Below are positions 3,104 through 47,253 of a stretch of DNA of 64,000 bases, piece by piece (position 1 is the stretch's first letter; each line of letters begins with the position of its first letter). A model generated the notes under the pieces. The model was not told where the DNA came from, did no database searches, and was given only the letters and a program-made list of their open reading frames with translations. The DNA comes from Desulfobacterales bacterium (GTDB taxonomy: Bacteria; Desulfobacterota; Desulfobacteria; Desulfobacterales; UBA2245), in assembly GCA_040771865.1 (NCBI GenBank), contig JAXGZF010000006.1, positions 310,001 to 374,000 on the forward strand. The letters run 5' to 3'. Made by a program: the position numbers and the translations under genes.

Positions 3104-4321
3104 TTATACGGCTTGGAGTGCATCCGGATCGATGTCGGCAAGCGCACGTTTGATCTGCCGAAGTGCCTGGCGGATTCGATTTTCGTTTTCCACCAGCGCC
3201 AGCCGCAGGTAGCCCTCTCCCTCCTGACCGAATCCGATGCCCGGCGCCACCGCCACGTTGGCCCGTTTCATCATTTCCACGGCGAACTGCATCGAACCCA
3301 TTCGATCGTAGGGTTCCGGAATCTTGACCCATACGAACATGCCGCCTTTAGGCTTGGCGACCGGCCAGCCCATGCGCTGAAGTCCGCGGCAAAGCAAATC
3401 CCGGCGCTGTTGATAGATGGCTACCTGGCGCGATATGTCCTCATCGCATTGGCGCAGGGCGACGATGCCGGCAATTTGAATGGCCGAGAAGATGCCGTAG
3501 TCGTAATATCCCTTGACCTTGGCAAGCCCCTGAATCATCCGCCGGTTGCCGACGCAGTATCCCATCCGCCATCCGGCCATGTTGTAGGACTTTGAAAAAG
3601 AGCCGAACTCCACTCCCACATCGATGGCGCCGGGCGCCTGAAGAAAGCTCGGGGCCGTATAGCCGTCAAAGGTGATCTTGGCGTAGGCGAAGTCATGGAT
3701 CACCATGAACTGGTATTTTTTGGCCAGAGCAACGACTTCACGGAACAGTTCCGGTTCGGTCACCGTGGAGGTGGGATTGTGGGGATAGTTGAGCATCAGC
3801 ACCTTGGGGCGCGGGTACAGAGATTCGCATATATCGCTGATTCGCCGGAGCAGCGATTCCGAGGAGGTTTCCAGGGGAATGCCGATAACATTTCCGCCGG
3901 CGATGATCGATGCGTAGATGTGGATGGGGAAAGCCGGCGTGGGGACAATCACTGTGTCGCCCGGACCGATCAGGGCCAGGCACATGTGGGAGATGCCTTC
4001 CTTGGAACCGATGGTGACGATGACCTCGGCGTCTTCATCGAGGTGAACGCCGTAGTCTCTTTCGTAGGATCGTGCAATTTCCCGGCGAAGGTTTTTAAAA
4101 CCAGCGGCTACGGGATACCGATGGCTTTTCGGATCTTTGACCACATCGCACAGTTTTTCAATAACCGGTTCCGGGGTAGGGTCAATGGGGTTTCCCATGC
4201 CAAGATCAATGACGTCCAGTCCCTCCCAGCGCTTCTGCATCTTGATCTGGTTGATGGTTCCAAAAAGATAAGGCGGCAGCTGCGCCATACGGCTGGCAAA
4301 TCGAATCGGACTGTTCTGCAT
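3104..4321 (-). CDS. alaC: PLP-dependent class I aminotransferase, AlaC (glutamate-pyruvate aminotransferase)-like
   Basis: LPPYLF, IDLGMGNP, VTIGSKEG, PAFPIHIY, NYPHNP, HDFAY, SFSKSYNMAGWRMG, EGYLRLALVENENRIRQA closely recall E. coli AlaC/YfdZ. SD AAGGAG at 4335-4330 precedes ATG 4321. Substrate specificity is inferred. Confidence 0.75.
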   Translation of the reverse strand: MQNSPIRFASRMAQLPPYLFGTINQIKMQKRWEGLDVIDLGMGNPIDPTPEPVIEKLCDVVKDPKSHRYPVAAGFKNLRREIARSYERDYGVHLDEDAEVIVTIGSKEGISHMCLALIGPGDTVIVPTPAFPIHIYASIIAGGNVIGIPLETSSESLLRRISDICESLYPRPKVLMLNYPHNPTSTVTEPELFREVVALAKKYQFMVIHDFAYAKITFDGYTAPSFLQAPGAIDVGVEFGSFSKSYNMAGWRMGYCVGNRRMIQGLAKVKGYYDYGIFSAIQIAGIVALRQCDEDISRQVAIYQQRRDLLCRGLQRMGWPVAKPKGGMFVWVKIPEPYDRMGSMQFAVEMMKRANVAVAPGIGFGQEGEGYLRLALVENENRIRQALRQIKRALADIDPDALQAV

Positions 4322-4354
4322 ATAATTCACTCCTTGCCGACTGCCGGGTCGAAC

Positions 4355-4384
4355 AAAAAAACCCCGGGTTTTTTGGACCCGAGG
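4355..4384 (-). terminator. Second leader terminator-like hairpin (T2) upstream of the alaC-like gene
   Basis: Minus strand CCTCGGGT-CCAAAAA-ACCCGGGG-T7. Confidence 0.6.
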
Positions 4385-4385
4385 C

Positions 4386-4421
4386 AAAAAAAAGCCATGG
4401 GCCTTGTGGTCAGCCCATGGC
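4386..4421 (-). terminator. Attenuator terminator (T1, 3:4 hairpin)
   Basis: Minus strand GCCATGGGC-TGACCACAAG-GCCCATGGC-T8; perfect 9-bp stem. Confidence 0.85.
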
Positions 4422-4446
4422 GTACCCGACAGATCAGATCAATAGG

Positions 4447-4512
4447 TTATCTTCTGTCAACGGCCGCATGGACTCTCGAATCCGCGGCCGCTGCGTTGCT
4501 AAATACGTTCAT
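4447..4512 (-). CDS. Putative alanine-rich attenuator leader peptide MNVFSNAAAADSRVHAAVDRR
   Basis: ATG 4512 to TAA 4447; 6 of 21 codons are Ala (GCA GCG GCC GCG ... GCG GCC); stop lies 25 nt before T1; no clear SD. Confidence 0.7.
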   Translation of the reverse strand: MNVFSNAAAADSRVHAAVDRR

Positions 4513-4561
4513 AAGGTAAAATTTTGCCGCACTCGTTGTTTTCGGGCGGTCTGGCGTTTCT

Positions 4562-4750
4562 TTATTTACCGGATTTGGCTGATGAATAGCCGTCGGCATA
4601 CCATCCGCTGCCTTTGAGTTCAAAAGAGCAGGCGGACATGATTTTTTTGGCTTTTTGTCGACATTTGGGGCATTCAATTTCCTGAGTGCCCATCTTGACC
4701 CATTTCTCAGTGATTGTGCCATCGGGGCATTCGAATTCATAAACAGGCAT
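4562..4750 (-). CDS. FmdB-family zinc-ribbon regulatory protein
   Basis: MPVYEFEC...CPKC...KIMS...FELKGSGWYADGY; SD GAGAGG upstream. Confidence 0.88.
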   Translation of the reverse strand: MPVYEFECPDGTITEKWVKMGTQEIECPKCRQKAKKIMSACSFELKGSGWYADGYSSAKSGK

Positions 4751-4899
4751 GATACCAACCTCTCATAATTTTTTTGAAACTGTATTATAGAAGAATATTC
4801 AAAATTTAATCGAAGTCAAGAAAAAAGATCGTTCAATGCAATCTTCGGCTTTCCCAAAAATTCTTGAAAATGCATGCCGCTTGGGGTATAAGCGCGACA

Positions 4900-6186
4900 A
4901 TGAAATCTAAATTTCTGCATTCAAACTGGATATGCTTGGCCCTTTTGCTGATTTTGTTGCCTGCCTGCAAGCTGACCTCCGCGGAAAAATCAAAAACCCA
5001 CAATTTTCAAGCTGCCAAGAGATCGACTCAACCGTCCAAAGCCGAATTTCGCTATGGAATCGATGTCAGCAAGTATTCCCTCGAAACCGGCACGGTCGTG
5101 AACGGAGAGAACCTGGTCTCCATTCTCGGCCGTTTTCGAGTTCCCGATTCGACGGGATGCGCCGCGGCTGCCGCGGCCGCCTGCGTCTTTGACGTTCGAA
5201 GCATTCAGGCGGGAAATTCCTACAGTATCTTTAAAGACCCGGAAAGCAGCGCCCGGTATTTTGTTTACGAGGAAAACCCCATAGATTACGTTGTGTTTGA
5301 CCTTGGCGATCCGATTCATGTGTCCACCGGCAAAAAACCAGTGGAAGTTCGCATTCAGACAGCTTCAGGCATAATCGAAGATTCTCTTTACCAGGCCGTC
5401 ATGGATCAGGGGCTGAATTACGATTTGCTGATCCAGCTTTCGGAAATTTATGCCTGGTCTTTTGATTTTCATCACCTGCAAAAAGGCGACAGTTTTACTG
5501 CATTGTTTGAACAAAATTGCGTGGACGGGAATCCGGTGGGCCTGGGGAAGGTTCTGGCCGCGCGTTTCACTTACCGTGGAAGCGATTACAGCGCTTATTA
5601 TTTTGAATCGGACAACCATGGCGACTACTACGACGAAGAAGGTCGGTGCCTTCGAAAAACTTTTTTGAAAGCGCCGATCCGCTATAGCCGTATCAGCTCC
5701 GGTTTCAGCCGCTGCCGGCTGCATCCGGTACTCAAGGTCTACCGGCCGCATCTGGGCACCGACTATGCGGCGCCCGCCGGAACTCCGGTGATGAGCGTGG
5801 GAGACGGGGTGGTTGCGGAGGCCGCTTATAACAACAGCAATGGCCGCTATCTGACAATCCGGCACAACGGCACATACAGCAGCCAGTACCTGCATTTTTC
5901 CCGTTTTGCCAAAGGTATCCGCCCTGGAACCCGGGTGCGTCAGGGCCAGATTATCGGTTATGTGGGAAGTACGGGTCTTGCGACCGGCCCGCATCTGGAC
6001 TTCCGTCTGCGCAAAAACGGCAAACTGGTGGATCACCGCAAGGAAAAAAATCCTTCGGTCCAGCCGCTGAACGACAGGTTGCTTCCCTTGTTCGCCCGCT
6101 ATATCGAACCGCTTAAGTTGCGCTTGGATGAAGCAGCCATCTGTGCGGGTTATGCAAATGATCCCGTATCCGATACCAGGGGATAA
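4900..6186 (+). CDS. M23 family peptidoglycan DD-metalloendopeptidase (MepM/Csd3-like)
   Basis: N-terminal hydrophobic segment, FLKAP, RLHPVLKVYRPHLGTDYAAP, YLHFS, VGSTGLATGPHLDFR. Start ATG 4900 chosen. Confidence 0.9.
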   Translation: MKSKFLHSNWICLALLLILLPACKLTSAEKSKTHNFQAAKRSTQPSKAEFRYGIDVSKYSLETGTVVNGENLVSILGRFRVPDSTGCAAAAAAACVFDVRSIQAGNSYSIFKDPESSARYFVYEENPIDYVVFDLGDPIHVSTGKKPVEVRIQTASGIIEDSLYQAVMDQGLNYDLLIQLSEIYAWSFDFHHLQKGDSFTALFEQNCVDGNPVGLGKVLAARFTYRGSDYSAYYFESDNHGDYYDEEGRCLRKTFLKAPIRYSRISSGFSRCRLHPVLKVYRPHLGTDYAAPAGTPVMSVGDGVVAEAAYNNSNGRYLTIRHNGTYSSQYLHFSRFAKGIRPGTRVRQGQIIGYVGSTGLATGPHLDFRLRKNGKLVDHRKEKNPSVQPLNDRLLPLFARYIEPLKLRLDEAAICAGYANDPVSDTRG

Positions 6187-37435: not shown

Positions 37436-37939
37436 TTATCGATTACGGGGAATTTCAATGCGAATCATGTCGCCCTTGATCCTGGCCCGTATTCTTCTTT
37501 TGCGGGCCGAATCGGGAATAAAGAAAACCTTTCTGAAACACCGATAACAGCTACCATCGACAAACCCGTGGGGCGAAATCATATCGGCGGCCATTGAGCG
37601 CTCACCTTCAACGGTCAATCGATTACCCCGAACCCCGACATAAATGCTTTCCTTTCTCACTCCTGGGATGTGAGCGCAAATGACAATCGCTCCATGATAC
37701 TCAAAAACCTCTTCGGACTTTTCAAACGCCATGATTCCAGCATCATTCATCGTTTTGAGCGATTTCCAGCCGCAGAGCAGCTCCTCCTCATTTGCATCCT
37801 GCAGAAGTGGCTTCCATCCGTAAAGCGTCAATTTATTGTATCTTTCGATGTCCCCATAAAATGCTTCGGTAAAAGTTCGTTTCAGCCTGTCCTCGTATGA
37901 ACCCTCGGAATTGAGAATATCCCACCGCACATGCGCCAT
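37436..37939 (-). CDS. Hsp20/alpha-crystallin family protein
   Basis: AHIPGVRKESI.V.V.GNRLTVEGER...FRKVF.IP...IRARIKG...IEIP; SD GGAGG before ATG 37939. Confidence 0.8.
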   Translation of the reverse strand: MAHVRWDILNSEGSYEDRLKRTFTEAFYGDIERYNKLTLYGWKPLLQDANEEELLCGWKSLKTMNDAGIMAFEKSEEVFEYHGAIVICAHIPGVRKESIYVGVRGNRLTVEGERSMAADMISPHGFVDGSCYRCFRKVFFIPDSARKRRIRARIKGDMIRIEIPRNR

Positions 37940-46374: not shown

Positions 46375-47253
46375 TCAGGAGGGATCGGAAGATGTTTGAA
46401 CCTTCAGAGCTTCAGCATAAATCTGTTTTTTCGAAAGGCCGGTTCGGGAGGTCAGAATCCTGACGGTTTCCGAAATGCTGCTGCCGGCTTCAAGCATTTC
46501 CTGAATTTCTTCCCGGATCGCTTCAATATCGGCTTTTTCGACAGGGCATCCCGAAACCAGAAGGGTGCATTCCCCTTTTACCACCGGTCTATTGCTCAGC
46601 GTTTTTGCCATGCTGGAAAGGTTTGCACGAATGATTTCTTCATGAATCTTGGTCAATTCGCGGGCAAGAACCGCATGCCGGTTCCCCATGGTCTGTATCA
46701 GTTCATCGATCAGCAAAAGGAGTCGCTGGGGGGATTCGTAAAAAATCAGGGTGCGGGAATCGGCTTTCAGTGCTTCAATCTGTTGAAGGCGCCGATTCTT
46801 TCTTTTGGACAAAAAACCGACAAAAACAAAGGCGTCCGTGGGAAGGCCTGAAGCGCTCAGCGCGGCGACCGCAGCCGATACCCCTGGAATCGGCACTACG
46901 CGGATACCGGTTTCGGCGGCTTGTCTGATCAGACGATAGCCTGGATCAGACACCGAGGGCGTGCCGGCATCGGAAACCAGGGCGATGGACAGGCCCTGTC
47001 GAAGTTGTTCAATCAAGCCGGCGGCCCGGCGCTGTTCATTATACTCGTGAAAAGACGTCAGCCGGGTTTTGATTCCGTGAAAGGAAAGCAGCCGGGCGGT
47101 ATGACGGGTATCCTCGGCGGCGATCAGATCCACCTGCCGAAGTACCGCTAAAGCCCGTAAGGTGATATCCTGCATGTTTCCGATCGGCGTTGCCACCACG
47201 TACAGGATTCCCGGAGATACTCCGGAATTTTCAGGCGGGGAAATTGAAGGCAT
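46375..47253 (-). CDS. rsmI: 16S rRNA C1402 2'-O-methyltransferase
   Basis: LYVVATPIGN..DIT.RA, AAEDTR, VSDAGTP.VSDPG, FYESP, ARELTKIHEE. Confidence 0.96.
   Translation of the reverse strand: MPSISPPENSGVSPGILYVVATPIGNMQDITLRALAVLRQVDLIAAEDTRHTARLLSFHGIKTRLTSFHEYNEQRRAAGLIEQLRQGLSIALVSDAGTPSVSDPGYRLIRQAAETGIRVVPIPGVSAAVAALSASGLPTDAFVFVGFLSKRKNRRLQQIEALKADSRTLIFYESPQRLLLLIDELIQTMGNRHAVLARELTKIHEEIIRANLSSMAKTLSNRPVVKGECTLLVSGCPVEKADIEAIREEIQEMLEAGSSISETVRILTSRTGLSKKQIYAEALKVQTSSDPS

Follow-up and report, generated by a model that had tools for sequence, protein, structure and literature searches.

Transcription attenuation that depends on a translated leader peptide is best known from trpL, hisL, leuL, thrL, ilvL and pheL of Escherichia coli and Salmonella, in which the regulatory codons are those for Trp, His, Leu, Thr, Ile/Val and Phe, respectively. 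These systems are cited as classical attenuators in PMC10274678 and PMC1183508. Here we describe an element with alanine codons in the corresponding place. It lies in a stretch of 64,000 nucleotides (nt) of DNA from a Desulfobacterales bacterium (NCBI GenBank assembly GCA_040771865.1, contig JAXGZF010000006.1, positions 310,001 to 374,000 of the forward strand; the whole stretch is called the window below), where a short open reading frame (ORF) with a run of Ala codons and two terminator-like hairpins precede an aminotransferase gene. The element is real and its conservation exceeds chance by far, and we hold with good confidence that it is a ribosome-mediated leader-peptide transcription attenuator with Ala as the regulatory codons.

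Two other described systems are close in one respect or another. The upstream ORF (uORF) of the mycobacterial gene whiB7 is called an ‘Ala leader’ by its authors, and is described as raising the alanine aminotransferase AspC indirectly via WhiB7 (PMC10274678). The aspC motif of Narunsky et al. (2024) is presented as a strong riboswitch candidate upstream of putative amino-acid aminotransferase genes. It stems mostly from environmental DNA, is a proposed amino-acid sensor, and is described as a three-stem junction with few conserved nucleotides immediately before the start codon, with no uORF mentioned in the available part of the source (PMC11109978). General treatments of leader genes and attenuation mention no alanine case in the parts available (PMC4833913, PMC2965389). 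A preliminary description of the locus, made from the letters of the DNA alone, had stated that no alanine leader-peptide attenuator was known to it. Our literature searches bear this out insofar as no cis-acting alanine attenuator was found, but the statement needs to be narrowed in view of the indirect ‘Ala leader’ described for whiB7 (PMC10274678).

The leader ORF and its hairpins in the window

All features of the locus are on the minus strand, and coordinates are positions in the 64,000-nt stretch. The element consists of the following parts, in the direction of transcription.

ATG 4512 to TAA 4449-4447, minus strand: leader ORF of 21 codons plus stop, MNVFSNAAAADSRVHAAVDRR
4494-4483, minus strand: four Ala codons in a row (GCA GCG GCC GCG), proposed to be the regulatory ones
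4493-4479, minus strand: segment 1, 5' strand of the 1:2 hairpin in the minimum-energy fold, overlapping the Ala run and the next codons
4474-4458, minus strand: segment 2 in the minimum-energy fold, partner of segment 1 or segment 3
4467-4462, minus strand: two further Ala codons in the leader ORF
4457-4429 (4457-4449 with 4439-4429), minus strand: hairpin around the leader stop codon in the minimum-energy fold, ACAGAAGAU / AUCU..UCUGU
4421-4412, minus strand: segment 3, 5' arm of the first terminator hairpin (H1), GCCAUGGGCU
4403-4394 and 4393-4386, minus strand: segment 4, 3' arm of H1, and U8; first terminator
4385-4377, minus strand: segment 5, 5' arm of the second hairpin (H2), GCCUCGGGU, similar to segment 3 and able to pair with segment 4
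4369-4361 and 4361-4355, minus strand: segment 6, 3' arm of H2, and a U run (U7); second terminator

The ORF of 21 codons, with its four consecutive Ala codons and the two additional ones, was found where the preliminary description had placed it, as was the GCCAUGGGC/GCCCAUGGC-U8 terminator 25 nt past the leader stop. This terminator is H1, a 10-pair stem of GCCAUGGGCU with GGCCCAUGGC (4421-4412 with 4403-4394) followed by the eight U. It had been taken for the only one, but it is the first of two chained hairpins: H2 (4385-4361) lies directly 3' of H1, is conserved along with the rest of the element and, with its U run (4385-4355), falls just outside the region described before. The three competing stems proposed for the leader can also be recognized. 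The 1:2 hairpin and the hairpin around the stop codon are part of the minimum-energy fold, and the 2:3 pairing is possible close to the proposed register, with AGUCCAU(GC)GGC (4474-4463) opposite GCCAUGGGCU (4421-4412). The stop-codon hairpin would form the inner part of the extended antiterminator stem; analogous hairpins were seen by eye in relatives.

The 212-nt leader folds at −77.2 kcal/mol (z = −4.22), an energy reached by none of 200 dinucleotide shuffles, and the 1:2 domain of the window alone folds at −23.1 kcal/mol (z = −4.7). The leader ORF of a genome from the same genus is MTMYSKAAAADPRVHAAVDRR.

Conservation of the element, its codons and its pairings

A DNA similarity search among 41 relatives aligned, beyond the genus, only the zinc-ribbon gene that lies 5' of the leader, and nucleotide homology alone was therefore insufficient for a comparison. 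The zinc-ribbon gene is linked to the aminotransferase only in the genome of the window (G000) and in G001, an arrangement that was observed in this genus only; homologues of the zinc-ribbon gene were also located at 11 loci in 10 other genomes, in each case without this aminotransferase behind them. A search of 201 genomes of the order at the protein level yielded orthologues of the aminotransferase with 66–100% identity in 27 genomes, and a near-universal paralogue group of ~50% identity, of which the window genome also contains a member. Together with 80 further orthologous loci from species-representative genomes (Desulfobacterales, Desulfobulbales and one metagenome-assembled genome of the Syntrophobacteraceae), 107 orthologous loci were examined. 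The genes 5' of the element vary among lineages. In G017, for example, which belongs to another family of the order and has a 78% identical aminotransferase, a small lipoprotein-like gene takes the upstream place and is followed, in this order, by a TTGACA-type promoter, a short ORF (MNKLKQIISAAAAAMDSVQATIGSV) and the same two hairpins.

The element was searched for with a covariance model, R1, of the part that starts after the Ala run. As R1 contains no Ala-run columns, circularity was avoided in testing the conservation of the run. R1 matched 19 of the 27 and 36 of the 80 orthologous loci (55 of 107, with 52 distinct sequences) and none of three paralogue loci. When 151 genomes of the order were searched with the RNA model only, all 14 strong matches (≥58 bits) were located directly upstream of this aminotransferase group. 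The window’s own genome has a single match, the copy in the window. One strong match (L145 in G095) precedes an aminotransferase copy that aligns only as residues 5–118 and 365–401 and was not among the orthologues of the 201-genome protein search. Judged by this distribution across genomes, the element travels with the aminotransferase and not with the zinc-ribbon gene.

Among the leaderless orthologues, those at L078, L082, L097, L101 and L105 (two of them from Desulfopila) share a conserved TGATTGGCAAG...GAAAATGGTACGAT motif, that is TTGGCA-N17-TACGAT, ~80–120 nt 5' of the start codon. By its sequence, this motif suggests that the same gene is controlled differently there, at the promoter level.

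Short ORFs with at least three consecutive Ala codons were present at a constant distance 5' of the gene at 17 of the 27 and 35 of the 80 orthologous loci, and at none of the three paralogue loci. Ala-run matches at L050 and L100 were discarded as unrelated frames. Among the R1-positive loci, 52 of 55 carry an Ala-run ORF with start and stop, which corresponds to 49 of 52 distinct sequences; the 49 distinct leaders remain after removal of three duplicate species. Their runs comprise four (13 leaders), five (25), six (10) or seven (1) Ala codons, the start codon is ATG in 47 and GTG in two, and the peptides of 11–30 residues are unalike outside the Ala run and the Val-His that segment 2 encodes. 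The runs are written in 31 distinct codon strings, with G (112), C (76), A (37) and T (19) at the third positions.

The preliminary description had named the conservation of Ala codons in orthologous leaders as a test that could refute its reading, the alternative being that the run is a mere by-product of a GC-rich stem. The comparison favours its reading: runs of 4–7 Ala were present in 49 of the 52 distinct elements, and because the third codon positions vary freely (counts as above), the run is not merely a fixed GC-rich stem. The three-base periodicity of this variation and the conserved frame speak for translation of the leader. The three R1-positive exceptions without an Ala-run ORF, with YATATEK in L023 and IAASAMN in L033 and the third in L115, look like decayed or degenerate copies. 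In L115 (999-1119, plus strand, and upstream) the full hairpin element is accompanied by a frame interrupted by an in-frame TGA after four codons (MKIH, stop, RQKRAAAAKALRVR, stop); the TGA precedes RAAAAKA, and the locus represents either a decaying leader or a sequencing error.

Base pairing was evaluated in a MAFFT alignment (A2) of 41 of the 49 leaders. The other eight (L019, L027, L053, L054, L064, L068, L074 and L088) were left out by the automatic hairpin parsing, and R1 matches all of them. Three Desulfosarcina-type rows (L047, L049 and L093) are misaligned in H1; they were kept and their cells scored as unpaired. The rival pairings were defined from the sequences: in 2:3, segment 2 faces the 5' arm of H1, and in 4:5, the 3' arm of H1 faces the 5' arm of H2. 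The sequences are related, so that covariation counts overstate independent events and slid controls are the fairer yardstick; with this reservation, H1 and H2 had 90.4% of their cells paired and 87 cells changed on both sides (slid controls 25–53% paired), and the rival pairings 2:3 and 4:5 had 80.9% paired and 67 cells changed on both sides (slid controls 24–45%). The covariation score of each of the two sets was reached by none of 500 shuffles.

Taken singly across the 41 sequences, the helices were 86.6% (H1), 94.9% (H2), 82.9% (2:3) and 78.7% (4:5) paired. Changes on both sides occurred at 7 of the 10 pairs of H2, at 5 of the 12 pairs of 2:3 and at 5 pairs of 4:5. Column swaps were seen in 2:3 at 42:125 (AU 23, GC 12) and 44:123 (UA 21, UG 11, CG 8), and in 4:5 at 137:169 (UA 21, CG 15) and 140:166 (AU 16, GC 14). 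Covarying hairpins in orthologues were among the checks put forward in the preliminary description, and the pairing of the antiterminator with the terminator's 5' arm is kept, with compensatory changes.

Since 4:5 is conserved, the 5' arm of H2 is kept similar to that of H1. For H1 and H2, the matching arms read, for example, UGGACU/UGGACC (Desulfobulbus type) and UGGGCU/CGGGUC (window); the Desulfosarcina type has GGGCCGG in both hairpins. At least six U are found among the next eight bases after H2 in 32 of 41 sequences, after H1 in 22, and after at least one of the hairpins in 38; three U or fewer follow H1 in 11 of 41 sequences and H2 in none. The single U-run terminator described earlier at H1 thus has its good U run in the window, but many relatives have one only at H2. 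The mimicry of the H1 arm by the H2 arm matters because H1 is without a usable U run in part of the family. The conservation of the terminators and of their rival pairings, both with compensatory changes, suggests a six-segment relay that would disable both hairpins.

Related leaders, gene context and transcripts

Weak R1 matches (32–49 bits) in the phylum and the order turned out to be other leader ORFs, each followed by two GCCAUGG-type hairpins. Leaders containing WWWW or WIWWW precede trpB2-like ORFs and one WWW leader precedes a trpE-like ORF, both named by eye. F/Y-rich leaders were found before aldolase-like ORFs, and a Leu-rich leader before a leuA-like ORF, the latter likewise named by eye. 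An FFYFYF leader precedes an aminotransferase that is 28% identical to that of the window (tblastn).

A crude scan of the window’s own genome for codon-run ORFs with a terminator and a gene gave 65 candidates, of which four look like credible attenuators and the rest mostly like chance. The four are the Ala leader of the window, a Trp leader (L136), an F/Y leader (L137) and an Ile/Leu/Val leader (L138). At L136 (G000 C6:170240-170287, plus strand), the ORF MNAERQKYYWWWRGF has three consecutive Trp codons and is followed by two hairpins with U runs and, ~156 nt past the leader stop, by a gene of the DctP family (solute-binding protein of TRAP transporters); by its layout this is likely a Trp attenuator on a transporter gene. 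The leader MDDQMTQNFSGGYFWYYYFTRGLPLVR (YFWYYYF) at L137 (G000 C10 ~46445-46528, minus strand) is followed by two GCCGUGGGC-type hairpins and a DeoC/LacD-family aldolase gene, and is likely an aromatic amino-acid attenuator. L153, L154 and L158 have F/Y-rich leaders of a similar kind, each in front of an ORF that looks homologous. At L138 (G000 C5 ~37511-37603, minus strand), the Ile/Leu/Val-rich leader MKNMNWIIINLISLILISVVGVVLDHGKAG and one terminator lie 89 nt 5' of ilvD (dihydroxy-acid dehydratase, Pfam). The matching of codon runs to genes on a shared scaffold is the strongest indirect argument for a regulatory role of the Ala run.

Tandem pairs of G+C-rich hairpins that resemble each other and have U runs are found as plain terminators too: one pair follows a tRNA gene in L134 (G217), another a protein gene in L132 (G307). 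Paired terminators seem to be a habit of the phylum.

The surroundings of the element in the window are as follows.

4819-4792, minus strand: promoter-like site TTGACT-16-TATTCT 5' of the zinc-ribbon gene, a consensus match only
4778-4749, minus strand: second promoter-like site
4750-4562, minus strand: FmdB-family zinc-ribbon gene, 62 amino acids (aa), Pfam PF09723, NCBIfam TIGR02605
4335-3104, minus strand: aminotransferase gene including its Shine-Dalgarno (SD) sequence AAGGAG (4335-4330), ATG at 4321, 405 aa, class I/II, Pfam PF00155

The spacer between the zinc-ribbon gene and the aminotransferase gene measures 240 nt and contains the leader and the hairpins. The site at 4819-4792 is the likeliest promoter of the leader-carrying transcript in the source genus. 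Among the 49 leaders, a strict scan found a TTGACA-type promoter 5' of the leader in 23, and more are visible by eye.

Low-depth contigs that lie over the zinc-ribbon gene and extend into the leader are present in four metatranscriptome runs, all from one study. One covers 4757-4433, and hence the zinc-ribbon gene and the leader, three stop near 4492-4495, and a further contig lies inside the aminotransferase gene. The contig 4757-4433 fits a co-transcription of zinc-ribbon gene and leader, a weak hint given that it is of low depth, stems from one study and may include DNA. The contigs give neither transcript ends nor transcript levels, and the uncovered terminator region is uninformative.

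Upstream of its ATG, the leader frame stays open (4520-4600, minus strand) as far as another ATG, which lies within the 3' end of the zinc-ribbon coding sequence; a start there would give a frame of 50 codons. The sole indel in the spacer between the window and G001 (L002) is 3 nt long, and the 50-codon frame is kept in both genomes. This extended frame may be due to chance.

Proposed mechanism, alternatives and comparison with known systems

In the proposed mechanism, the transcript would start upstream, probably at the promoter of the zinc-ribbon gene in the source genus and at a TTGACA-type promoter just before the leader in most relatives. With plentiful Ala-tRNA, the ribosome would traverse the Ala run and cover segment 2, whereupon 3:4 (H1) and 5:6 (H2) could form and transcription would stop at one or both U runs. 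With charged tRNA-Ala in short supply, the ribosome would stall in the Ala run and hold segment 1, so that segment 2 would be free for segment 3. Segment 4, left without a partner, would then pair with segment 5, the mimic of segment 3. Neither H1 nor H2 would form, and the polymerase would read into the aminotransferase gene. In such a relay, a single ribosome stall would disarm both terminators in turn. This specific six-segment mechanism is in our view probable, with a confidence that stays clearly below that in leader-peptide attenuation as such.

Folding of truncated transcripts with simulated ribosomes is largely consistent with this order of events. When transcripts were cut at the H1 loop and a ribosome mask was placed on any Ala codon, segment 3 paired upstream in 41 of 41 sequences. 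In the window, the upstream pairing of segment 3 was 0.06 for the free transcript, 0.89 with a stalled ribosome and 0.54 with the ribosome at the stop codon. When transcripts were cut at the H2 loop, segment 5 was paired with segment 4 in 37 of 41 sequences with segment 3 masked and in three of 41 with segment 3 free; in the window, the pairing probability was 0.75 and 0.00, respectively.

Several results weigh against the proposed reading or parts of it. Segment 3 of the transcripts cut at the H1 loop also paired upstream in 34 of 41 sequences when no ribosome was present and in 33 of 41 when the ribosome stood at the stop codon. Full-length equilibrium folds retained both hairpins in most sequences under every ribosome mask; 39 of 41 free transcripts had H2, and so did 35 of 41 with a mask (A site on the second Ala codon). 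As most sequences display no equilibrium switch, any switch must be kinetic, and we took full-length equilibrium folding as uninformative for a kinetic device, not as support. In the trp attenuator, the terminator is the more stable form. Folding with a ribosome mask, which the preliminary description had put forward as a check, thus gave a clear switch in the truncated window transcript (0.06 to 0.89), but mostly none in full-length folds. From the MAFFT alignment, RNAalifold recovered no more than H2, the core of H1 and a stem of two pairs inside the Ala run (columns 19-20/25-26). The 1:2 hairpin is strong in the window, as described before, but weak in most relatives: z < −2 was reached by the 1:2 domain in only 5 of 41 sequences, although segment 2 was mostly paired upstream in 36 of 41 truncated folds. 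Because 1:2 is weak in most relatives, termination there would rest on the ribosome passing over segment 2.

Initiation of the leader and its distribution add to these points. The window has neither an SD-like sequence 5' of the leader ATG at 4512 nor, in the interval from the zinc-ribbon gene to the leader (4562-4512), a promoter-like site, and in this respect the preliminary description, which had named both as a weakness, was correct. SD duplexes of ≤−6 kcal/mol were present in 6 of the 49 leaders and in 51 of 392 control windows, and this missing enrichment speaks against efficient initiation at the leader start codons as far as the sequences can tell. Furthermore, the element was not found by R1 at 8 of the 27 and 44 of the 80 orthologous loci.

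The scores of the regulated enzyme belong on the same side. Its best NCBIfam match is the alanine transaminase AlaC (NF006033) with 501.4 bits, which is below the curated cut-off of 647, and the paralogue in the window genome (C7:345173-346342, equal to L125:574-1743, plus strand; 389 aa, 52% identical, AlaC-like) is closer to this family with 627.7 bits. R1 gave no match in a 2.3-kb stretch around this paralogue. The LL-diaminopimelate aminotransferase models scored 475.9 bits (NF006604, cut-off 648) and 449.1 bits (TIGR03540, cut-off 593), in both cases below the cut-off, and the closest solved structure, 2x5d, is labelled ‘probable aminotransferase’. The designation as AlaC-like thus agrees with the best match (501 bits), but the score stays under the family cut-off and is surpassed by that of the paralogue. 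By sequence, the leader-linked enzyme can be placed in the AlaC/DapC-like group, and it most likely makes alanine, a view that is based on the best family match and on the Ala leader itself.

The missing SD enrichment at the leader start codons would also be expected if the leader were an untranslated structured RNA, i.e., a riboswitch or a protein- or tRNA-binding element, in which the GCN run is a stem strand and the frame incidental. The Ala run indeed takes part in the 1:2 stem, often with the palindrome GCGGCCGC, and with the aspC motif a riboswitch candidate upstream of aminotransferase genes exists, although it was compared by description only and that description fits the present element poorly (PMC11109978). 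However, the variation within the run falls on every third base and uses all four bases, 52 of 55 loci have a start codon in frame and a stop placed after segment 2 and before H1, the peptide is otherwise unconserved, and runs of W, F/Y and I/L/V occur on the same chassis before matching genes. No Rfam family matches the element: an Rfam 15 scan of 3900-5000 (E up to 10) gave a best score of 20.4 bits at a gathering score of 70, with chance-level small RNA matches driven by the terminators, and a scan of six related loci detected only a tRNA. We consider an untranslated leader RNA improbable. Only slightly more improbable is a leader-peptide attenuator that senses a general slowing of translation, in the manner of ermC or whiB7, and not alanine specifically. 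A stall anywhere in the leader would free segment 2, and the whiB7 uORF is described as reacting to many amino-acid shortages and to antibiotics (PMC10274678). Against such a general sensor, codon conservation is limited to an unbroken run of 4–7 Ala just before segment 2, the runs of the sister elements match their genes, and the best family match of the regulated aminotransferase is an alanine transaminase.

The position of the hairpins in the window, 140 nt past the zinc-ribbon gene with no promoter in between, would also fit tandem terminators of that gene, the short ORF then being a chance frame in its 3' untranslated region. The RNA-library contigs that run from the zinc-ribbon gene into the leader and the tandem GCCAUGG-type hairpins that serve elsewhere as plain terminators, such as those after the tRNA in L134, point in the same direction. 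Yet the zinc-ribbon homologues at the 11 loci of 10 other genomes have no such aminotransferase after them, and in lineages where the upstream genes are different and the leader has a promoter of its own, the ORF and hairpins are still found with the aminotransferase. We regard this explanation as very improbable. Leader-peptide attenuation with Ala as the sensed amino acid is the best explanation of the element, and we favour, again with moderate confidence, a joint reading in which Desulfobacterota use a modular six-segment relay attenuator whose codon run sets the specificity, the Ala version is the first cis-acting alanine-sensing one, and the enzyme, a divergent AlaC-like aminotransferase, is the alanine synthase that these bacteria induce on alanine starvation.

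If this reading is true, alanine joins the list of amino acids sensed by leader-peptide attenuation; it is one of the most abundant amino acids, yet no direct attenuator for it was found in the literature. The leader would also provide regulatory evidence on the source of alanine in sulfate reducers, in which two similar aminotransferases come into question and sequence models cannot decide between alanine and LL-diaminopimelate enzymes. A two-terminator relay would seemingly be reused for several amino acids in a phylum with little-studied RNA regulation. In addition, short ORFs without a clear SD sequence could be conserved regulatory frames, which matters for annotation.

Among the known systems, the aspC motif shares with the element that a conserved RNA lies upstream of putative amino-acid aminotransferase genes, whereas the element described here has highly conserved arms, two U-run hairpins and an Ala-run ORF; the two are set apart by description only (PMC11109978). 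The likeness to the whiB7 uORF is also one of description, and no sequence or structural likeness is claimed. Both have an Ala-enriched uORF, in both stalling favours (here, would favour) an antiterminator over a rho-independent terminator, and the final output is, or here would be, more alanine aminotransferase. The whiB7 leader, however, is described as controlling a transcription factor that activates aspC, and its uORF is longer, of mixed composition and responsive to many stresses and antibiotics, whereas here the leader directly precedes the aminotransferase gene and has an uninterrupted run of 4–7 Ala (PMC10274678).

The Phe/Tyr, Trp and Ile/Leu/Val leaders of the phylum have the same layout as the Ala leader, namely a promoter, a codon-run ORF and two G+C-rich U-run hairpins with similar 5' arms. 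They differ in carrying other codon runs and in preceding other genes (the 28% identical aminotransferase, the DeoC aldolase, DctP and ilvD).

With the classical leader-peptide attenuators, the element shares a short ORF in which regulatory codons are clustered, predicted stems that exclude each other (2:3, 3:4 and a 1:2 that is weak in most relatives), an intrinsic terminator, a biosynthetic gene downstream, and a stall that would favour the antiterminator. Its predicted anatomy comprises the ORF, the codon cluster, the intrinsic terminator and the conserved antiterminator expected of such an attenuator. Unlike in the classical cases, the SD sequence is weak or absent and the hosts are Desulfobacterales and Desulfobulbales. 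The regulatory codons here are those for alanine, the target is a single aminotransferase gene, and two chained hairpins with a second alternative pairing, 4:5, take the place of one terminator. The element thus differs from the described attenuators in the amino acid it would sense, in its single-gene aminotransferase target and in its proposed two-hairpin relay.

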